From the NCBI RefSeq assembly GCF_002854065.1, contig NZ_CP024147.1: DNA of 64,000 bases; one strand, given 5' to 3'. The stretch comes from Escherichia coli. Its GTDB lineage: Bacteria > Pseudomonadota > Gammaproteobacteria > Enterobacterales > Enterobacteriaceae. Positions 3,960-62,500 of the stretch are shown piece after piece (positions within the stretch are counted from its first letter, which is position 1; every line of letters begins with the position of its first letter). Position numbers and translations under genes: made by a program. The notes under the pieces were generated by a model, which was not told the origin of the DNA, searched no databases, and saw nothing but the letters and a program-made list of their open reading frames with translations.

Positions 3960-4766
3960 ATGAAATTTGTCTCTTTTAATATCAACGGCCTGCGCGCCAG
4001 ACCCCACCAGCTTGAAGCCATCGTCGAAAAGCACCAACCGGATGTGATTGGCCTGCAGGAGACAAAAGTTCATGACGATATGTTTCCGCTCGAAGAGGTG
4101 GCGAAGCTCGGCTACAACGTGTTTTATCACGGGCAGAAAGGCCATTATGGCGTGGCGCTGCTGACCAAAGAGACGCCGATTGCCGTGCGTCGCGGCTTTC
4201 CCGGTGACGACGAAGAGGCGCAGCGGCGGATTATTATGGCGGAAATCCCCTCACCGCTGGGTAATGTCACCGTGATCAACGGTTACTTCCCGCAGGGTGA
4301 AAGCCGCGACCATCCGATAAAATTCCCGGCAAAAGCGCAGTTTTATCAGAACCTGCAAAACTACCTGGAAACCGAACTCAAGCGTGAAAATCCGGTGCTG
4401 ATTATGGGCGATATGAATATCAGTCCTGGCGACCTGGATATTGGCATTGGCGAAGAGAACCGTAAGCGCTGGCTGCGTACCGGAAAATGTTCTTTCCTTC
4501 CGGAGGAACGCGAATGGATGGAGAGACTGATGAGCTGGGGATTGGTTGATACCTTCCGCCATGCGAATCCCCAAACAGCAGATCGTTTCTCATGGTTTGA
4601 TTACCGCTCAAAAGGTTTTGACGATAACCGTGGTCTGCGCATCGACCTGCTGCTCGCCAGCCAACCGCTGGCAGAATGTTGCGTAGAAACCGGCATCGAC
4701 TATGAAATCCGCAGCATGGAAAAACCGTCCGATCACGCCCCCGTCTGGGCGACCTTCCGCCGCTAA
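3960..4766 (+). CDS. xthA: exodeoxyribonuclease III (268 aa)
   Basis: [36 protein letters not shown]... within ORF 3948..4766; start taken at the internal ATG giving 268 aa. Confidence 0.9.
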
Positions 4767-10999: not shown

Positions 11000-12307
11000 A
11001 TGAAACGTGTTTCTCAAATGACCGCGCTGGCAATGGCTTTAGGGCTGGCTTGCGCTTCTTCGTGGGCCGCTGAACTGGCGAAGCCTCTTACACTTGACCA
11101 GCTTCAACAACAAAATGGCAAAGCGATAGATACTCGCCCCAGCGCGTTTTATAACGGCTGGCCACAAACCTTAAATGGCCCTTCTGGTCATGAACCTGCC
11201 GCCTTAAACCTCTCTGCTAGCTGGCTTGACAAAATGAGCACCGAACAGCTCAACGCGTGGATCAAGCAACATAACCTGAGAGCCGATGCCCCGGTGGCGC
11301 TGTACGGTAATGGCAAAGATGTCGACGCCGTCAAAACGCGACTGCAAAAAGCAGGTTTTACGCATATCTCCATTCTGAGTGACGCGCTAAGCGAACCTTC
11401 CCGTCTGCAAAAACTGCCGCATTTTGAGCAGCTGGTTTATCCGCAATGGCTGCATGACCTGCAACAAGGTAAAGAGGTTACGGCGAAACCTGCCGGTGAC
11501 TGGAAAGTCATTGAAGCGGCCTGGGGCACTCCTAAGCTTTACCTTATCAGCCATATTCCCGGCGCTGACTACATCGATACCAACGAAGTGGAAAGCGAAC
11601 CGCTGTGGAACAAAGTTTCTGATGAACAACTAAAAGCGATGCTGGCAAAACACGGCATTCGCCATGACACCACGGTCATTCTGTACGGGCGTGACGTATA
11701 CGCTGCAGCGCGTGTGGCGCAGATTATGCTGTATGCAGGCGTGAAAGATGTGCGCCTGCTGGATGGCGGCTGGCAAACCTGGTCCGACGCGGGTCTGCCC
11801 GTTGAGCGCGGTACGCCACCGAAAGTGAAAGCGGAACCGGATTTCGGCGTGAAGATCCCGGCGCAACCGCAGTTGATGCTCGATATGGAACAGGCCCGTG
11901 GACTGCTGCATCGCCAGGATGCATCGCTGGTGAGCATTCGTTCGTGGCCAGAATTTATCGGTACGACCAGCGGTTACAGCTATATTAAACCAAAAGGTGA
12001 AATAGCCGGAGCACGTTGGGGACACGCTGGTAGCGACTCGACGCATATGGAAGATTTCCATAACCCGGATGGCACCATGCGTAGCGCCGATGATATTACC
12101 GCTATGTGGAAAGCATGGAATATCAAACCAGATCAGCAAGTTTCATTCTACTGCGGCACCGGCTGGCGCGCGTCCGAAACCTTTATGTACGCACGAGCAA
12201 TGGGCTGGAATAACGTCTCCGTTTACGACGGCGGCTGGTACGAATGGAGCAGCGATCCAAAAAATCCGGTAGCAACCGGTGAACGCGGCCCGGACAGCAG
12301 CAAATAA
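11000..12307 (+). CDS. ynjE: periplasmic sulfurtransferase with rhodanese domains (435 aa)
   Basis: ORF 10985..12307; signal peptide; rhodanese-type active-site Cys (FYCGTGWRAS). Confidence 0.8.
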   Translation: MKRVSQMTALAMALGLACASSWAAELAKPLTLDQLQQQNGKAIDTRPSAFYNGWPQTLNGPSGHEPAALNLSASWLDKMSTEQLNAWIKQHNLRADAPVALYGNGKDVDAVKTRLQKAGFTHISILSDALSEPSRLQKLPHFEQLVYPQWLHDLQQGKEVTAKPAGDWKVIEAAWGTPKLYLISHIPGADYIDTNEVESEPLWNKVSDEQLKAMLAKHGIRHDTTVILYGRDVYAAARVAQIMLYAGVKDVRLLDGGWQTWSDAGLPVERGTPPKVKAEPDFGVKIPAQPQLMLDMEQARGLLHRQDASLVSIRSWPEFIGTTSGYSYIKPKGEIAGARWGHAGSDSTHMEDFHNPDGTMRSADDITAMWKAWNIKPDQQVSFYCGTGWRASETFMYARAMGWNNVSVYDGGWYEWSSDPKNPVATGERGPDSSK

Positions 12308-49858: not shown

Positions 49859-50040
49859 TTATTGATCTCACATATGTATCCAAGCTTAGAGTATCGCGGT
49901 ATCGTTTTGTTTTGCAGCACTATTTTTATTACATTCACTCAAAACATATTACGTCTTATTTCATCTTTGTTGATGATGTTTTATCATGCCTGCAAAGATT
50001 AAATAATCAGCATTTACCCGCCGTATCCTGGAGTTGTTCC

Positions 50041-51066
50041 GTGTCAGATCAGATTATCGCCCGCGTCTCGCAATCCCTTGCCAAAGAACAGTCACTGGAA
50101 AGTCTGGTCCGACAGCTTCTGGAGATGCTGGAAATGGTCACTGATATGGAATCAACCTACCTGACCAAAGTGGATGTCGAAGCGCGCCTGCAGCATATTA
50201 TGTTTGCCCGTAACAGCCAGAAAATGCACATCCCGGAGAATTTTACCGTCTCGTGGGATTACTCGTTATGCAAACGCGCCATTGATGAAAACTGCTTTTT
50301 CAGCGATGAAGTCCCTGACCGTTGGGGCGACTGTATTGCGGCACGCAATCTTGGCATCACCACATTTCTGAGCACGCCAATTCACTTACCGGATGGATCA
50401 TTCTATGGCACGCTTTGCGCCGCCAGCAGTGAGAAGCGCCAGTGGAGTGAACGCGCGGAACAGGTTTTACAGTTATTCGCCGGACTGATTGCACAATATA
50501 TTCAAAAAGAGGCATTGGTTGAACAGCTGCGCGAAGCTAATGCTGCGCTGATTGCGCAATCGTATACCGACTCGTTAACCGGGCTACCGAATCGGCGGGC
50601 GATTTTTGAAAATCTGACGACGCTGTTTTCCCTCGCCCGGCATCTTAACCATAAGATAATGATCGCGTTTATCGATCTGGATAACTTCAAATTAATCAAT
50701 GATCGTTTTGGTCATAATAGTGGCGATCTGTTTCTCATTCAGGTTGGCGAGCGCCTTAATACGCTCCAGCAAAATGGCGAAGTTATTGGTCGTCTCGGTG
50801 GTGATGAGTTTTTGGTTGTTTCACTAAACAACGAGAATGCGGATATTTCGTCGCTGCGAGAACGTATTCAACAGCAAATACGTGGAGAATATCACTTAGG
50901 TGATGTTGATTTGTATTATCCCGGTGCCAGTCTTGGCATAGTAGAAGTCGATCCTGAAACGACCGATGCAGACAGTGCCCTGTATGCTGCCGATATCGCG
51001 ATGTATCAGGAGAAAAAACACAAACAGAAAACACCTTTTGTCGCGCATCCAGCGCTACATTCCTGA
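50041..51066 (+). CDS. yeaP: GAF-GGDEF diguanylate cyclase (341 aa), GTG start
   Basis: ORF 49912..51066; annotated-length start at GTG 50041 (VSDQIIARVSQ); intact GGDEF (GRLGGDEFLVV). Confidence 0.8.
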   Translation: MSDQIIARVSQSLAKEQSLESLVRQLLEMLEMVTDMESTYLTKVDVEARLQHIMFARNSQKMHIPENFTVSWDYSLCKRAIDENCFFSDEVPDRWGDCIAARNLGITTFLSTPIHLPDGSFYGTLCAASSEKRQWSERAEQVLQLFAGLIAQYIQKEALVEQLREANAALIAQSYTDSLTGLPNRRAIFENLTTLFSLARHLNHKIMIAFIDLDNFKLINDRFGHNSGDLFLIQVGERLNTLQQNGEVIGRLGGDEFLVVSLNNENADISSLRERIQQQIRGEYHLGDVDLYYPGASLGIVEVDPETTDADSALYAADIAMYQEKKHKQKTPFVAHPALHS

Positions 51067-54134: not shown

Positions 54135-54239
54135 GATTCGTGTTTTATGTTTCACCAGTTATGGGGATTAATTCCTTTTCAGTCAATTATAGGATAGTGA
54201 TGTTGTCAATTTTGATGGTCAGGAAGTGAGAACCCAATA

Positions 54240-55322
54240 ATGAAAACGATGCGTATTGCTGCGATCCCGGGAGACGGGATTGGCAAAGAAGTCCTTCCTG
54301 AAGGGATTCGCGTGTTACAGGCTGCCGCTGAGCGCTGGGGCTTCGCCTTGAGTTTTGAGCAAATGGAGTGGGCGAGCTGCGAGTATTACAGCCATCACGG
54401 TAAAATGATGCCGGACGACTGGCATGAGCAACTTAGCCGTTTCGACGCCATCTATTTTGGTGCCGTCGGCTGGCCGGACACCGTTCCGGACCATATTTCG
54501 TTGTGGGGTTCGCTGCTGAAATTTCGTCGTGAATTCGACCAGTACGTCAACCTGCGCCCGGTTCGTCTCTTTCCTGGCGTTCCCTGCCCGCTGGCGGGAA
54601 AACAGCCTGGCGACATCGATTTTTACGTGGTCAGGGAAAACACCGAAGGCGAATATTCCTCGCTCGGCGGTAGAGTGAATGAAGGTACAGAGCATGAAGT
54701 CGTCATTCAGGAATCGGTATTTACGCGTCGTGGTGTCGATCGCATTTTGCGTTATGCCTTCGAACTTGCGCAAAGCCGCCCACGTAAGACGCTAACTTCT
54801 GCCACTAAATCAAACGGTTTAGCCATCAGCATGCCGTACTGGGATGAGCGAGTGGAAGCAATGGCCGAGAATTACCCGGAGATCCGCTGGGACAAGCAGC
54901 ATATTGATATTCTCTGCGCGCGTTTTGTGATGCAGCCGGAACGCTTCGATGTGGTGGTGGCGTCCAATTTGTTTGGCGATATCCTTTCCGATCTTGGCCC
55001 GGCCTGCACCGGCACCATTGGCATTGCCCCATCCGCCAACCTGAATCCGGAACGCACTTTCCCGTCGCTCTTCGAGCCTGTCCACGGTTCCGCGCCGGAT
55101 ATCTACGGGAAAAATATTGCTAACCCTATCGCCACAATTTGGGCCGGGGCAATGATGCTCGATTTTCTCGGCAATGGCGATGAGCGTTTCCAGCAAGCGC
55201 ATAACGGTATTCTGGCAGCGATTGAAGAAGTGATTGCTCACGGGCCGAAAACACCGGATATGAAAGGCAGTGCCACCACGCCACAGGTTGCCGACGCGAT
55301 TTGCAAAATTATTTTGCGTTAA
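54240..55322 (+). CDS. dmlA: D-malate / tartrate dehydrogenase, decarboxylating (360 aa)
   Basis: Isocitrate/isopropylmalate dehydrogenase family pattern (MKTMRIAAIPGDGIGKEV...). Confidence 0.9.
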   Translation: MKTMRIAAIPGDGIGKEVLPEGIRVLQAAAERWGFALSFEQMEWASCEYYSHHGKMMPDDWHEQLSRFDAIYFGAVGWPDTVPDHISLWGSLLKFRREFDQYVNLRPVRLFPGVPCPLAGKQPGDIDFYVVRENTEGEYSSLGGRVNEGTEHEVVIQESVFTRRGVDRILRYAFELAQSRPRKTLTSATKSNGLAISMPYWDERVEAMAENYPEIRWDKQHIDILCARFVMQPERFDVVVASNLFGDILSDLGPACTGTIGIAPSANLNPERTFPSLFEPVHGSAPDIYGKNIANPIATIWAGAMMLDFLGNGDERFQQAHNGILAAIEEVIAHGPKTPDMKGSATTPQVADAICKIILR

Positions 55323-55572: not shown

Positions 55573-57183
55573 ATGATGAGCAATGTTAAGAAAAAAGATG
55601 TGCCGCTGATAAGCATCAGCCTGGTGGCCATTCTTTTCATCGCAGCTGCATTAAGCCTTTTCCCACAACAATCGGCCGACGCGGCCAACGCAATATACAC
55701 TTTTGTTACGCGTACGTTAGGTTCCGCCGTACAGGTATTGGTTTTGCTGGCAATGGGACTGGTGATTTATTTAGCCACTAGTAAATACGGCAATATTCGT
55801 CTTGGCGAAGGAAAACCGGAATACAGCACGCTCTCCTGGCTGTTTATGTTTATTTGTGCCGGTTTAGGTTCTTCTACGCTTTATTGGGGGGTTGCTGAAT
55901 GGGCCTATTATTATCAAACGCCTGGATTAAATATCGCACCGCGTTCACAACAGGCACTCGAATTTAGCGTCCCTTACTCCTTCTTCCACTGGGGCATCAG
56001 CGCCTGGGCAACTTATACGCTGGCCTCATTAATCATGGCTTATCACTTTCATGTGCGGAAAAACAAAGGTCTGAGTCTTTCCGGCATTATTGCCGCGATT
56101 ACCGGCGTTCGCCCGCAAGGCCCATGGGGAAAACTGGTTGATTTGATGTTCCTGATCGCCACTGTCGGTGCACTGACTATTTCCCTTGTTGTCACCGCAG
56201 CAACCTTTACTCGTGGACTTTCCGCACTGACCGGTTTACCCGATAACTTCACCGTGCAGGCATTTGTGATCCTGCTTTCCGGCGGCATTTTTTGCCTAAG
56301 CTCATGGATTGGTATCAACAACGGTTTGCAACGTCTGAGCAAAATGGTTGGCTGGGGCGCGTTCCTGCTGCCATTACTGGTGCTGATTGTCGGTCCAACC
56401 GAATTTATTACCAACAGCATCATCAATGCCATCGGCCTGACCACGCAAAACTTCCTGCAAATGAGCTTATTCACCGATCCGCTTGGCGATGGTTCATTTA
56501 CCCGCAACTGGACCGTATTCTACTGGCTGTGGTGGATCTCATACACCCCTGGCGTAGCAATGTTTGTCACCCGCGTTTCCCGCGGTCGTAAGATTAAAGA
56601 AGTTATCTGGGGACTGATCCTCGGCAGCACCGTCGGTTGCTGGTTCTTCTTCGGCGTAATGGAAAGCTATGCCATTCATCAGTTTATCAATGGCGTAATC
56701 AACGTCCCACAGGTGCTGGAAACACTGGGCGGCGAAACAGCTGTACAGCAAGTTCTGATGTCGTTGCCAGCCGGTAAATTGTTCCTCGCCGCATACTTGG
56801 GCGTGATGATTATTTTCCTTGCCTCGCATATGGATGCAGTGGCCTACACCATGGCGGCGACCAGTACGCGTAATCTCCAGGAAGGTGACGATCCTGACCG
56901 TGGGCTGCGTCTTTTCTGGTGCGTGGTGATCACTCTGATCCCGCTTTCCATCTTGTTTACCGGTGCTTCGCTGGAAACGATGAAAACCACCGTCGTGCTC
57001 ACAGCCCTTCCCTTCCTCGTCATTTTACTGGTGAAAGTCGGCGGATTTATTCGCTGGCTGAAACAGGATTACGCCGACATTCCGGCTCATCAAGTTGAAC
57101 ATTATCTCCCGCAGACACCGGTTGAAGCCCTGGAAAAAACACCAGTGCTCCCTGCGGGAACCGTATTCAAAGGCGACAACTGA
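55573..57183 (+). CDS. yeaV: BCCT-family transporter (536 aa from ATG; a shorter internal TTG start is possible)
   Basis: ORF track 55573..57183 with AGGAG RBS before ATGATG; N-terminal 55 residues form a hydrophobic helix. Confidence 0.8.
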
Positions 57184-58394: not shown

Positions 58395-59360
58395 ATGTCA
58401 GACTATCAAATGTTTGAAGTACAGGTGAGTCAGGTGGAACCGCTTACCGAACAGGTGAAACGCTTCACGCTGGTGGCAACCGATGGCAAACCATTACCTG
58501 CGTTTACTGGAGGAAGTCACGTCATTGTGCAGATGAGCGATGGTGATAACCAGTATAGCAATGCGTATTCACTGCTGAGTTCGCCTCTCGATACAACTCA
58601 TTATCAGATTGCCGTTCGACTGGAAGAAAACTCGCGCGGCGGTTCCCGCTTTTTGCATCAGCAGGTAAAAGTGGGCGATCGGTTAACGATCTCATCGCCT
58701 AATAACCTGTTTGCGCTAATTCCCTCAGCCAGAAAGCATCTGTTTATCGCGGGCGGTATTGGTATCACCCCTTTCCTGTCGCACATGGCAGAGTTGCAAC
58801 ACAGCGACGTCGACTGGCAGCTACATTACTGCTCGCGAAATCCAGAAAGTTGCGCATTTCGTGATGAGCTAGTCCAGCATCCGCAGGCTGAGAAAGTCCA
58901 TTTGCATCATTCATCAACCGGAACACGACTGGAATTAGCGCGATTATTGGCGGATATCGAACCTGGCACACACGTTTATACCTGTGGCCCCGAGGCGCTA
59001 ATTGAAGCGGTAAGAAGTGAAGCTGCGCGTCTGGACATCGCCGCCGATACGCTGCACTTTGAGCAATTTGCTATCGAAGACAAAACCGGCGATGCATTTA
59101 CCCTGGTGCTTGCCCGTTCCGGAAAAGAGTTTGTGGTGCCGGAAGAGATGACTATTTTGCAGGTTATTGAAAATAATAAAGCCGCGAAAGTGGAATGTTT
59201 ATGTCGTGAAGGGGTATGCGGAACCTGCGAAACGGCAATACTGGAAGGTGAAGCTGACCATCGGGATCAGTATTTTAGCGATGAAGAGCGTGCCAGCCAG
59301 CAAAGTATGTTGATCTGTTGTTCGCGTGCGAAGGGTAAACGCCTGGTGTTGGATTTGTAG
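58395..59360 (+). CDS. yeaX: oxidoreductase with FNR-like and 2Fe-2S ferredoxin domains (321 aa)
   Basis: C-terminal CREGVCGTCE 2Fe-2S motif. Confidence 0.85.
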   Translation: MSDYQMFEVQVSQVEPLTEQVKRFTLVATDGKPLPAFTGGSHVIVQMSDGDNQYSNAYSLLSSPLDTTHYQIAVRLEENSRGGSRFLHQQVKVGDRLTISSPNNLFALIPSARKHLFIAGGIGITPFLSHMAELQHSDVDWQLHYCSRNPESCAFRDELVQHPQAEKVHLHHSSTGTRLELARLLADIEPGTHVYTCGPEALIEAVRSEAARLDIAADTLHFEQFAIEDKTGDAFTLVLARSGKEFVVPEEMTILQVIENNKAAKVECLCREGVCGTCETAILEGEADHRDQYFSDEERASQQSMLICCSRAKGKRLVLDL

Positions 59361-59364
59361 TTTG

Positions 59365-59407
59365 CCGAAGCCGGATGTGGCGCTGAGCGCGCCCAGTCCG
59401 GCTTCGG
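59365..59407. terminator. hairpin between convergent yeaX and rnd
   Basis: CCGAAGCCGGA...TCCGGCTTCGG, 11-bp stem. Confidence 0.45.
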
Positions 59408-59413
59408 AAGATT

Positions 59414-60541
59414 TTACTGCGGATATTCCTGCAATAAATTGTGTAATGCTTCCGCCATCAGCTCACCACGCCAGCCGGAAATCAGCTCCGGCAAATTGTT
59501 CTGCGGTTTCAGTTTCCAGTGCCAGTTCAGCAGTTGGTTGATTTGCCGACGCGATGCCAGCAATTCGGCGCTGATCTTATGCGTTTCGCTCACATCAGTA
59601 ATCAGCGACTTAATCGCTTTAAACGCTTTACGATAACCCGGCATGTCCATCAGGTTAAGCATCGGCTGCGGTAAGGCATCTTCCGGCAATGTCTGCGCTT
59701 TTTCCACCAGCGCCAGCAGCGTTTTACCATGAAAGCGGATTTCGCTACCGGATAAACCCAGGCTGTCCAGTTCGCCTAAACTTCCCGGCATATAACGCGC
59801 TACCGACCACAAATGCTCTTCACGCACGACAAAGTTCACCGCCAGATCGCGCTCTCGCGCCTTGCGCAGTCGCCAGTCGGCTAACAGTTGCAGACAGGCC
59901 AGTTGGCGTGTGCGTAATTGCCAGGCATTGGTGATATCACGCCAGGCATCTTCCGGCGCAACGACTTCCTGACGACGCATTTGCATCAGGCGACATTCAT
60001 CCAGCGCCGCTGGTAGCCAGCCGGAGGCCTCCGTTTCTACCATAAGCTTGGCGGTGATCGGTAACAGATACCAGACATCCGCCGCTGCATATTCACACTG
60101 ACGTTCGGTCAGCGGTCTGGCCAGCCAGTCGGTGCGCGATTCACTCTTGTCCAGCGTAACGCCGGAATACTCTTCCACCATGGAAGCGAAACCCCATGAC
60201 ATCGGGCGTCCGCAGAAGGCAGCAAGGATTTGCGTGTCAATCAGGGGTTGTGGTAATTCGCCAAAGGCATTGAGGAACACTTCCAGATCTTCACTGCCTG
60301 CATGGAGAAATTTTGTGATGGACGGATCGCGCAGGATCGCTTTCAGCGGTGACCAGTCGGTGATCCCGAGAGGATCAATTAGCGCCAGATGCTCGCCATC
60401 GAAAAGTTGAATCAACCCCAGCTGCGGGTAATAAGTGCGCGTACGAACAAATTCAGTATCCAGGGCTATCGCCGGAAAGGCACGGACGGCTTCACACAAA
60501 GAAGCCAGCGCATCGTCCGTGGTAATCATTTGGTAATTCAA
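59414..60541 (-). CDS. rnd: ribonuclease D (375 aa), TTG start
   Basis: MNYQMITTDDALASLCEAVRAF...; codon at 60539-60541 is TTG on the coding strand. Confidence 0.9.
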   Translation of the reverse strand: MNYQMITTDDALASLCEAVRAFPAIALDTEFVRTRTYYPQLGLIQLFDGEHLALIDPLGITDWSPLKAILRDPSITKFLHAGSEDLEVFLNAFGELPQPLIDTQILAAFCGRPMSWGFASMVEEYSGVTLDKSESRTDWLARPLTERQCEYAAADVWYLLPITAKLMVETEASGWLPAALDECRLMQMRRQEVVAPEDAWRDITNAWQLRTRQLACLQLLADWRLRKARERDLAVNFVVREEHLWSVARYMPGSLGELDSLGLSGSEIRFHGKTLLALVEKAQTLPEDALPQPMLNLMDMPGYRKAFKAIKSLITDVSETHKISAELLASRRQINQLLNWHWKLKPQNNLPELISGWRGELMAEALHNLLQEYPQ

Positions 60542-60565
60542 ATTGTATTCTCTTTAGTGGGCGTC

Positions 60566-60591
60566 AAAAAAAACGCCGGATTAACCGGCGT
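60566..60591 (-). terminator. intrinsic terminator downstream of fadD
   Basis: Minus strand reads GACGCCGGTTAATCCGGCGTTTTTTTT. Confidence 0.6.
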
Positions 60592-60610
60592 CTGACGACT
60601 GACTTAACGC

Positions 60611-62296
60611 TCAGGCTTTATTGTCCACTTTGCCGCGCGCTTCGTCACGTAATTCTCGTCGCAAAATTTTTCCGACGTTAGATTTCGGTAACTCATCACG
60701 AAACTCCACCAGCTTCGGTACTTTGTAGCCCGTGAGCTGACGGCGGCAAAAGGTCACCAGTGACTCTTCGGTAAGCGATGGATCTTTTTTCACTACGAAG
60801 ATTTTCACCGCTTCACCACTGGAGCCGGAAGGTACGCCAACAGCCGCGACTTCCTGTACGCCAGGATGCTGCATGACGACATCTTCAATCTCGTTGGGAT
60901 AGACGTTAAAACCGGAAACCAGAATCATGTCTTTTTTACGATCGACAATGCGCAGGAATCCTTCTTCATCCATCACCGCGATGTCGCCAGTGTGTAACCA
61001 GCCATTTTTGATGATTTCATCGGTAGCATCCGGACGCTGCCAGTAACCCAGCATCACCTGCGGTCCTTTGACACAAAGCTCACCCGGTTGACCCGGTGGT
61101 ACTTCATTATCATCATCATCCACCAGTTTGGCTTCTGTTGACGGTACTGGTAGGCCGATACTGCCGCTGTGGTAATCAATATCGTACGGGTTAACACTTA
61201 CCAATGGCGCACATTCGGTTAAGCCATAACCTTCAAGCAGATATTGTCCGGTCAGTTTCACCCAACGCTCTGCCACCACTTGCTGCACTGGCATCCCACC
61301 GCCTGCGGAAAGATGCAGACTGGAGAAATCCAGCTGCTGGAAATCTTTATTGTTCAGCAACGCATTAAACAAGGTGTTAACGCCAGTGATAGCGGTAAAC
61401 GGATATTTCGCTAACTCTTTTACCAACCCTGGAATATCACGCGGGTTAGTGATAAGCAGGTTCTGCCCACCCAGTTCGATAAACAGCAGGCAGTTAATGG
61501 TCAGGGCAAAAATGTGATACAGCGGCAGTGCCGTTACTACCAGTTCTTTACCTGGATGCAGCAACGGCCCATAGGTGGCGTTGACCTGTTCCAGGTTCGC
61601 CAGCATATTGCGGTGAGTCAGCATCGCGCCTTTCGCCACACCTGTGGTGCCGCCGGTGTATTGCAGGAAGGCTAAATCTTCCGGCACCAGTTCGGGTTTG
61701 ACGTACTGCATCCGGTAGCCGTTATGCAGTGCGCTACGAAATGAAATGGCATCTGGCAGATGGTATTTCGGCACCAAACGCTTGATGTATTTAACAACGA
61801 AATTGACTACCGTGCCTTTTGCCGTAGATAGCTGATCGCCCATACGGGTCAGAATTACGTGCTGAACGGCGGTTTTATCAACCACTTTTTCCAGTGTGTG
61901 AGCAAAGTTAGACACGATAACAATCGCCGATGCGCCGCTATCGTTAAGCTGATGCTCAAGCTCACGCGGGGTATACAACGGGTTAACGTTTACGACGATC
62001 ATCCCGGCACGCAAAATGCCAAACAGCGCCACCGGATATTGCAATAAATTAGGCATCATCAACGCAACGCGATCGCCTTTCTTCAGCCCCAACCCTTGTT
62101 GCAAATAAGCGGCAAACGCGCGACTGCGTTCTTCCAGCTTGCGGAAGGTCATCACCTCCCCCATATTCACAAACGCAGGCTGATCAGCGTAGCGCGCGAC
62201 CGACTGCTCAAACATATCTACCAGAGATTGATAACGGTCAGGGTTGATCTCCGTCGGAACGTCCGCGGGATAACGGTTAAGCCAAACCTTCTTCAA
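60611..62296 (-). CDS. fadD: long-chain fatty acid-CoA ligase (561 aa), TTG start
   Basis: ORF 60611..62362; start at TTG ([17 protein letters not shown]) preceded by GAGGTGAAG RBS; AMP-binding motifs. Confidence 0.9.
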
Positions 62297-62370
62297 TTCT
62301 TCACCTCTAAAATGCGTGTTCGTCGTCATCGCAACCCCAAATGATATACATGCCGTTAACATAATACTAA

Positions 62371-62390
62371 CTCATCATACCAGCTTGATA
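62371..62390 (-). promoter_or_regulatory. candidate FadR operator in the fadD promoter
   Basis: Minus strand ATCAAGCTGGTATGATGAG resembles the FadR half-site pattern (CTGGT...); position ~75 nt upstream of the fadD start. Confidence 0.35.
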
Positions 62391-62500
62391 ATTACCCAAC
62401 GAAAAGGTTGCGAAGCGCGTCACTATTTATTTTTATCTTTACCGTAAGAATGCAGAAACAGCGGACCAGCCGCTGTTTCTTTTTCTTTAAAAACAAGCAA

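Follow-up and report, generated by a model that had tools for sequence, protein, structure and literature searches.

The Escherichia coli genes rnd, fadD and dgcP (yeaP) start at near-cognate codons, namely UUG in the first two genes and GUG in the third. We estimate the probability of this reading, in which three otherwise ordinary genes possess non-AUG true starts, at about 95%. The analyzed window is a stretch of 64,000 nucleotides from the E. coli chromosome, and all start coordinates given for it in a preliminary description were found to be correct by direct reading of the sequence. That description had assigned TTG to rnd and fadD and GTG to yeaP, an assignment which is now backed by comparative data, by profiling of initiating ribosomes in vitro (INRI-seq), by N-terminal data and by a mapped transcription start. 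The present analysis established where the three starts lie and excluded rival ATGs as sole starts. It also demonstrated, in a cross-species test which covered rnd and fadD, that the start column is conserved exclusively as start-capable codons. The initiator tRNA reads the UUG, UUG and GUG codons of rnd, fadD and dgcP as formyl-methionine. The curated record of strain MG1655 contains the same three lengths (rnd 1128, fadD 1686 and dgcP 1026 nt).

Table 1. Positions of the genes, start codons and control elements within the window.
Feature	Position	Strand	Basis
rnd coding sequence (RNase D, 375 aa), TTG start	59414..60541	-	translation; MG1655 (1128 nt); PDB 1YT3 chain
rnd TTG initiation codon	60539..60541	-	conservation, INRI-seq, review statement
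rnd codon-5 in-frame ATG, automatic start of NCBI (371 aa)	60527..60529	-	RefSeq annotation
rnd Shine-Dalgarno-like AAGAGA, 7 nt 5' of TTG	60549..60554	-	column conservation
fadD terminator-like hairpin (60593-60571) and U8 run (60573-60566) in the rnd leader	60566..60593	-	terminator scan, fold
fadD coding sequence (561 aa), TTG start	60611..62296	-	translation; identical annotation in MG1655 and by the NCBI pipeline
fadD TTG initiation codon	62294..62296	-	conservation, INRI-seq, EcoGene N-terminus
fadD Shine-Dalgarno GAGGTGA	62301..62307	-	conservation across 74 species
Conserved in-frame ATG (62329-62327) and GGGG (62338-62335) in the fadD 5' UTR	62327..62338	-	conservation
fadD promoter core (FadR operator, -10, transcription start)	62356..62385	-	literature and sequence reading
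dgcP (yeaP) coding sequence, 341 aa, GTG 50041-50043, GGAG 50030-50033	50041..51066	+	sequence, annotation, peptides

Start codons of rnd, fadD and dgcP

As a test for non-ATG starts, a start column restricted to TTG and GTG was set against the drift of internal TTG leucine codons. In every species, the tblastn alignments of rnd and fadD extended to residue 1. Among 80 Enterobacteriaceae species, 76 had TTG and four had GTG in the start column of rnd; for fadD, the 74 species comprised 58 with TTG and 16 with GTG, and no other codon occurred in either column. The internal TTG leucine codons, seven in rnd and 13 in fadD, served as control; TTG or GTG persisted there in 1-38% of the species only, and most of these codons drifted to CTG.

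The TTG of rnd opens a frame of 375 codons on the minus strand, which begins with LNYQMITTDD. Directly downstream of this codon, the variation among the 80 species was synonymous and three-periodic (positions +5, +8 and +11). Upstream of it, columns -13 to -8 (AAGAGA) were 89-100% conserved, and the spacer from -7 to -1 varied freely and aperiodically. Initiation at the TTG is expected to give an N-terminal peptide (f)MNYQMITTDDALASLCEAVR or (M)NYQMITTDDALASLCEAVR, and initiation at the ATG in codon 5 the peptide (f)MITTDDALASLCEAVR. The N-terminus of the protein is said to have been located at the TTG by Zhang and Deutscher in 1988. A UUG start in the rnd mRNA is also stated in a review, and the RNase D chain of PDB entry 1YT3 begins with MNYQMITT. 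By INRI-seq (Table S2 of that study), peaks were obtained 12-18 nt from the annotated TTGs of rnd and fadD in five out of five replicates, with heights of 13-26 CPM for rnd versus 234-335 CPM for fadD. Neither gene has an entry in its list of alternative starts (Table S3), for which constructs with just 30 nt of upstream sequence were used. Ribo-RET, performed in vivo, gave a value of 0 for both rnd and fadD, and the N-terminomics table of TRAINSPOTTER contains no peptide of either protein.

The automatic annotation of NCBI has rnd begin at the ATG in codon 5 (60529), by which the protein is shortened to 371 aa and the TTG becomes part of the upstream non-coding sequence. This start was annotated in all four RefSeq genomes checked, initiation is more efficient at ATG, and Met5 is kept in 79 of the 80 species. 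Nevertheless, we regard it as very improbable. Codons 2-4 (N-Y-Q) exhibited synonymous third-position changes only, which is a coding pattern, and the column of the TTG is limited to TTG or GTG. The conserved AAGAGA is separated from the TTG by 7 nt versus 19 nt from the codon-5 ATG, and in Enterobacter sp. RIT418 codon 5 is ATT (Ile). Moreover, the INRI-seq peak resides at the TTG with no alternative start listed, even though the construct contained the codon-5 ATG, and the protein is 375 aa long in the curated annotation of K-12 as well as in the PDB chain. The RefSeq pipeline appears to trim RNase D systematically by four residues, so that protein-family and pangenome resources inherit the 371-aa form.

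On the minus strand, the fadD frame of 561 codons ends at 60611, and its TTG is preceded by GAGGTGAAG at 62307-62299, in which GAGG lies 7 nt from the start codon. The Shine-Dalgarno sequence previously described in front of this TTG was recovered as GAGGTGA, and AGAGGTG did not undergo a single parsimony change across 74 species. A TTG start of fadD in E. coli is reportedly given by Black et al. (1992). The set of N-terminally sequenced proteins in EcoGene includes fadD and identifies the TTG as its true start. Initiation at this codon is the sole possible source of a methionine at its position. A literature search for an explicit statement on the TTG start or for a fadD proteoform yielded nothing relevant beyond the Hon-yaku table.

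The plus-strand GTG of dgcP opens a frame of 341 codons ending at 51066, and the GUG together with GGAG located 7 nt upstream represents a routine arrangement. The only upstream in-frame candidate is a TTG at 49912, which has no Shine-Dalgarno sequence, and no ATG occurs downstream before codon 29. Table S1 of TRAINSPOTTER lists the N-terminal peptides MSDQIIAR and SDQIIAR of dgcP along with support by Ribo-RET and INRI-seq. Of the two checks that had been proposed for the three starts, initiation profiling yielded INRI-seq peaks at the TTGs of rnd and fadD and was positive by two methods for dgcP. Experimental N-termini are available for fadD through EcoGene and for dgcP through matching peptides.

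The automatic annotation of a near-identical strain assigned 54 ATG, seven GTG, one TTG and one ATA start to the 63 genes of the window; this census was made on the own sequence of strain CUWW06, because window coordinates drift against it by 1-3 nt beyond the matched 3.2 kb. After correction of rnd from ATG to TTG, the census comprises 53 ATG and two TTG starts, and the TTG share of approximately 3% is the normal rate in E. coli.

In-frame ATGs upstream of fadD

Reading of the minus strand revealed the FadR operator AGCTGGTATGATGAGTT at 62385-62369 and a -10 region (TATTAT) at 62366-62361. The fadD transcription start mapped in the literature is located 60 bp upstream of the TTG, near A62356. 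A simple promoter scan, which did not detect any minus-strand promoter for fadD or rnd, was uninformative.

Two in-frame ATGs compete with the TTG. The far one at 62362, the first ATG of a 583-codon open frame, opens the longest ORF in a mechanical ORF list. With the transcription start 60 bp upstream of the TTG, it is outside of the fadD mRNA; this ATG (62362-62360) shares nucleotides with the -10 region and remains untranscribed. In addition, a stop between this ATG and the TTG closes the frame in Klebsiella, Raoultella and Enterobacter lineages. Translation of fadD from the far ATG is therefore hardly conceivable.

The second ATG (62329) resides 11 codons upstream of the TTG and would give rise to a proteoform of 572 aa, which would either accompany or replace the product of the TTG. 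Since transcription starts at -60, it is contained in the fadD mRNA. All 74-77 species possess the codon in frame, with neither an indel nor an in-frame stop intervening, and a conserved GGGG is situated 5 nt upstream of it. Within the ten codons from the ATG to the TTG, 14, 18 and 41 parsimony changes fell on positions 1, 2 and 3, respectively, although with three frames only this is a weak test of periodicity. In the variable codons upstream of the TTG, TAA and TAG triplets occurred off-frame and never in frame. The conservation of the leader could not be attributed to a conserved RNA structure, which was rejected as its cause, as RNAalifold gave -3 kcal/mol and no covariation. Finally, a start-site predictor scored this ATG at 0.663 and the TTG at 0.013.

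Against translation from this ATG speaks, above all, that the FadD N-terminus at the TTG belongs to the sequenced set, by which the ATG is refuted as the sole start. The triplets AGA GGT are invariant at the nucleotide level, which is Shine-Dalgarno-like and not codon-like, leader codons -7, -6 and -1 change non-synonymously, and the column of the TTG never turns into another leucine codon. In the study on the start-site predictor, the ATG bears the label '+11' and is taken for a false positive or a multi-start candidate. The assumption of the preliminary description that callers biased towards ATG misplace such starts was illustrated twice, by this prediction 11 codons upstream of fadD and by the codon-5 ATG which NCBI assigned to rnd. 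We consider it rather doubtful that fadD is wholly or partly translated from the ATG at 62329. At the same low level of confidence, fadD may be put forward as a candidate dual-start gene, in which the invariant AUG at -11 codons and the conserved GGGG within the 60-nt leader constitute a second initiation site. If so, the AUG would either yield an extended FadD (MTTN..FRG..) or load ribosomes that modulate the use of the UUG. The two starts can be distinguished by the N-terminal peptide, which is MKKVWLNR from the TTG and MTTNTHFR from the ATG. With regard to alternative initiation, the conserved upstream AUG offers a minor clue that can be tested.

Adjacency and strength of the TTG starts

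The genes rnd and fadD are separated by only 69 nt, and both retain non-ATG starts in every species examined, which might point to a shared, co-evolved regulatory design, e.g., a coupled low-level translation. The E. coli genome contains approximately 130 TTG genes among approximately 4300 (Blattner counts of 1997). From these numbers, a genome should contain about four adjacent TTG-TTG pairs by chance, and two TTG genes among the 63 of the window would be neighbors with a chance of about 3%. The adjacency is thus within chance. Furthermore, the genes have unrelated functions and ribosome-binding sites of unequal strength, and their switches to GTG fall in different lineages of the tree. Between them lies a terminator-like hairpin of fadD within the rnd leader, which is kept in Kluyvera and Cedecea with compensatory changes on both arms. 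A common design of the two starts is accordingly most unlikely.

In rnd, the weak UUG is combined with a weak Shine-Dalgarno sequence (AAGAGA), 35 nt downstream of the hairpin and the U8 tract. Conversion of the rnd start codon to AUG reportedly raises expression, and the U-rich leader is said to be needed for translation, as attributed to Zhang and Deutscher in 1989 and 1992. The region of the U8 tract corresponds to the published U-rich translational enhancer of rnd mRNA. According to the published model, synthesis of RNase D would be limited by the UUG, with the U-rich tract acting as enhancer. In fadD, the UUG is accompanied by GAGGUGA, which is strong, invariant and optimally spaced, probably allowing efficient initiation, and control of the gene is mainly transcriptional through FadR, CRP and ArcA.

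The weak codons may be retained to hold expression low. In a reporter, a UUG start lowered expression six to eight times below AUG or GUG. The preliminary description had referred to this role of weak initiation codons as known. It agrees with the published view for rnd, but applies to fadD in part only, where the Shine-Dalgarno sequence is strong and the in vitro INRI-seq peak was among the higher ones of its neighborhood. The start columns of the 80 rnd and 74 fadD species contained no ATG and showed seven switches between TTG and GTG; on the same tree, however, 45% of the fourfold sites with a majority of T never contained A, so that selection against ATG at the two starts is not demonstrable.

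Comparison with known systems

All three starts are already known from the curated K-12 annotation, and the UUG of rnd, together with the U-rich enhancer, counts as a classic example. As the starts of rnd and fadD were established experimentally decades ago, the result is of little biological import and its practical value lies in annotation quality. In rnd, the window harbors the gene, codon, hairpin, U8 tract and weak AAGAGA of the known E. coli system; relative to K-12, the strain exhibits one substitution (V92A) and otherwise the same biology. What has been added to this case is the conservation of TTG/GTG across 80 species. FadD of the window contains NNKDFQQ in place of NNKEFQQ, presumably the only substitution in comparison to the K-12 protein. 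With the E. coli fadD gene, whose N-terminus was verified in EcoGene, the window shares the TTG, GAGGTGA, the FadR operator and the position of the transcription start, while the ATG at -11 codons was previously noted solely as a 'false positive' of the predictor.

Other near-cognate starts in E. coli that serve the control of expression are the AUU of infC, the non-AUG start of pcnB and, with support by N-terminal peptides, the TTG of rpsT and the GTG of cra. These four genes likewise possess a conserved start codon, a near-cognate one which the initiator tRNA reads. infC differs by its demonstrated autoregulatory circuit, in which start codons are discriminated via IF3. To our knowledge, there is no feedback of this type for rnd, fadD or dgcP. 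For genes of this kind, a start column restricted to TTG and GTG, compared with the drift of internal TTG codons to CTG, offers a cheap validation of non-ATG starts.

Start codons of rnd, fadD and dgcP

By megablast, 5425 of 5426 complete E. coli genomes contain the region 59300-62500, and the strains 100416 and CUWW06 match it with 100% identity. Since it is near-universal and its neighbourhood (yeaX, rnd, fadD, yeaY and tsaB, with dgcP about 9 kb off) is annotated, the start codons concern three well-known E. coli genes, whose non-ATG starts are already known. The preliminary description had assigned TTG to rnd and fadD and GTG to yeaP, now dgcP. Direct reading of the frames showed all three assigned positions to be correct, and the curated MG1655 gene lengths (rnd, 1128 nt; fadD, 1686 nt; dgcP, 1026 nt) match exactly.

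Start codons of the three genes and competing in-frame candidates
Feature	Codon and position	Strand	Remarks
rnd start	TTG 60541-60539	-	opens 375-codon frame LNYQMITTDD..., ending 59414
rnd, rival start (ATG5)	ATG 60529	-	in frame, codon 5
rnd in CUWW06 annotation	L001 12115-13230		starts at ATG5
fadD start	TTG 62296-62294	-	preceded by ttaGAGGTGAAGaa; opens 561-codon frame ending 60611
fadD, rival start ("+11" ATG)	ATG 62329	-	in frame, 11 codons upstream
fadD, rival start	ATG 62362	-	in frame, 22 codons upstream
dgcP start	GTG 50041-50043	+	GGAG 7 nt upstream; opens 341-codon frame
dgcP, upstream candidate	TTG 49912	+	only in-frame one; without Shine-Dalgarno

The first downstream in-frame ATG of dgcP is codon 29. 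Two N-terminal peptides of its product, MSDQIIAR and SDQIIAR, are recorded in TRAINSPOTTER Table S1 for GTG 1877715, in rows that also show support by Ribo-RET, INRI-seq and REPARATION.

Competing in-frame ATG codons

A single scan of species-representative genomes with an RNase D query yielded 80 Enterobacteriaceae loci, most of them also with fadD. Residue 1 of rnd was encoded by TTG in 76 and by GTG in four of the 80 species, that of fadD by TTG in 58 and by GTG in 16 of 74; ATG or another leucine codon occurred in none. As a control, internal leucine codons with TTG (seven in rnd, 13 in fadD) were followed in the same alignments; they stayed TTG/GTG in only 1-38% of the species and mostly turned into CTG. 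This drift, compared with the start columns, indicates that the latter are constrained to start-capable codons. Parsimony on a neighbour-joining tree gave two TTG-GTG switches in rnd and five in fadD, none to ATG. On the same tree, 45% of the majority-T fourfold-degenerate sites also never show A, and an avoidance of ATG at the two starts is not demonstrated by these alignments.

Within rnd, the sequence AAGAGA is invariant at -13 to -8 and, according to per-column counts, the spacer behind it varies freely and aperiodically. Three-periodic variation sets in right after the TTG, +5, +8 and +11 being synonymous and codon positions 1 and 2 near-fixed. Moreover, Enterobacter sp. RIT418 has ATT at codon 5. 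Thus, coding begins at the TTG, and ATG5 was ruled out as the start. The crystal chain of RNase D (1YT3) comprises 375 aa with the N-terminus MNYQMITT. In INRI-seq, a retapamulin ribosome profiling on synthetic transcripts (30 nt upstream plus 51 codons per MG1655 gene), a start counts as detected if a peak lies at a distance of 12-18 nt from its annotated position. Table S2 of that study gives an rnd peak at 1887991 that is scored TRUE, with 13-26 CPM across five replicates. The construct includes ATG5, and initiation there would shift the peak 12 nt downstream; the assay therefore separates the two codons. Shimwellia pseudoproteus (L082, ~3998-4003) has an in-frame ATG directly before the rnd TTG (TATATG TTG AAT); in no other of the 80 species could an ATG have replaced the start.

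Regarding fadD, a mechanical ORF list gives a 583-codon frame from ATG 62362. When mapped onto the window, the transcription start known from the literature lies near A62356; immediately upstream of it are TATTAT (62366-62361) and the FadR operator (62385-62369). ATG 62362 therefore lies outside the mRNA and was rejected. Upstream of the TTG, AGAGGTG underwent zero changes on the tree, while non-synonymous changes occur in the two codons that separate it from the start; this is the behaviour of a Shine-Dalgarno sequence plus spacer. INRI-seq Table S2 reports a fadD peak at 1889746 (234-335 CPM, TRUE). Neither rnd nor fadD is among the alternative starts in Table S3, and in vivo Ribo-RET was zero for both.

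The "+11" ATG resides in an unusually conserved part of the fadD 5' UTR (62327-62338, minus strand), where the sequence GGGGYTGNG-ATG-ACG-ACG-AAY is shared, essentially unchanged, by all species. It is preceded by the invariant GGGG and shares the frame of the TTG; none of the 74-77 Enterobacteriaceae loci has an indel or an in-frame stop in the 30 nt separating the two codons, and off-frame TAA/TAG triplets do occur in variable codons. Over these ten codons, parsimony gave 14, 18 and 41 changes at codon positions 1, 2 and 3, respectively, a bias towards the third position, and RNAalifold found no conserved RNA structure in the fadD leader. The "+11" ATG may be a minor upstream initiation site, though this conservation pattern is also compatible with a nucleotide-level (regulatory) element. 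INRI-seq constructs begin at -30, and their result for fadD thus covers only sequence downstream of this ATG. The Hon-yaku predictor table, based on the EcoGene set of N-terminally sequenced proteins, lists fadD with a score of 0.013 for the true site and 0.663 for a false-positive site at +11 codons. This listing implies that the FadD N-terminus at the TTG was sequenced and that an ATG-favouring predictor misplaces the start. The TTG start stands despite the "+11" ATG, because a sequenced N-terminal Met at this position requires initiation there. Black et al. 1992 are said to have sequenced the FadD N-terminus and to have named TTG as the initiator.

Both kinds of evidence to which the preliminary description had pointed, N-terminal data (FadD, DgcP) and initiation peaks (INRI-seq for rnd and fadD, Ribo-RET and INRI-seq for dgcP), agree with the TTG/TTG/GTG assignment, which is confirmed; its interpretation was essentially right.

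Annotation and start-codon usage

The expectation that ATG-biased callers misplace such starts holds true for rnd in current RefSeq records, but not for fadD and dgcP, which the NCBI pipeline calls correctly. In all four RefSeq genomes checked (CUWW06, O157:H7 TR01, EC1515 and GDSC2227PM) rnd was annotated with 1116 nt (371 aa) from ATG5. The TTG start (375 aa) is backed by the curated MG1655 gene, PDB 1YT3 and the comparative evidence.

Automatic annotation of the window-matching strain shows 63 genes across the stretch, starting with ATG (54), GTG (7), TTG (1) and ATA (1); after correction of rnd there are 53 ATG and two TTG (3%). These frequencies are normal. The probability that two TTG genes among 63 adjoin is ~3%, and roughly four adjacent TTG pairs are expected per genome, an estimate that takes roughly 130 of roughly 4300 genes as TTG-initiated. 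The GTG switches of rnd and fadD fall in different lineages, which argues against a coupled design.

Some other genes of the window also differed between strains or annotations. At dmlA (54237-54242, plus strand; 11913-11918 in the MG1655 locus L002), ATG ATG of K-12 is ATA ATG in the window strain; the CUWW06 automatic annotation keeps the homologous position, hence the ATA start, and the initiator is obviously the adjacent ATG 54240. The gene yeaV (55573-57183, plus strand) has 1611 nt (536 aa), vs 1446 nt in K-12 MG1655 (L002 13189-14634), and genes downstream of it are offset by ~225 nt relative to K-12; there appears to be a K-12 deletion or a differing gene model. In the CUWW06 annotation ynjI is a frameshifted pseudogene (region 15363-16402 of L083), and a 1-nt drift between window and CUWW06 was found in the first ~16 kb.

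Start codons and translation level

It had also been proposed that weak codons keep expression low. For fadD this idea is weakly supported: its UUG follows a near-consensus Shine-Dalgarno sequence, and its in vitro INRI-seq peak relative to transcript abundance (~290 vs 338 CPM) exceeds that of rnd (~20 vs 54) and those of neighbouring genes. The established control of fadD is transcriptional. For rnd, the proposal corresponds to a published model.

The rnd leader contains, in this order, the terminator-like hairpin of fadD (60593-60571), eight U, 11 nt, AAGAGA and a 7-nt spacer before the UUG. The hairpin is retained across genera with both arms changed (ACGCCAG...CTGGCGT in Kluyvera, GATGCCGG...CCGGCATT in Cedecea). 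Sequences flanking it (60566-60600, minus strand; loci L003-L082) can pair across the U tract, CGUCA with UGACG in E. coli and CGCC with GGCG in Klebsiella and Enterobacter, which lengthens the stem and leaves the U run bulged out. This structure may be relevant to the effect of the U-rich leader on rnd translation. Zhang and Deutscher reportedly sequenced the N-terminus of RNase D and increased expression by changing UUG to AUG. A 2020 review, citing Zhang and Deutscher 1992, ascribes to the rnd mRNA an alternative initiator, UUG, as well as a translational enhancer, and a second paper cites its U-rich enhancer. In a reporter system, expression from UUG was 6-8 times below that from AUG or GUG. 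Following the model in this literature, RNase D synthesis would be limited by the weak UUG together with a weak Shine-Dalgarno sequence, and the U tract of the leader would recruit ribosomes.
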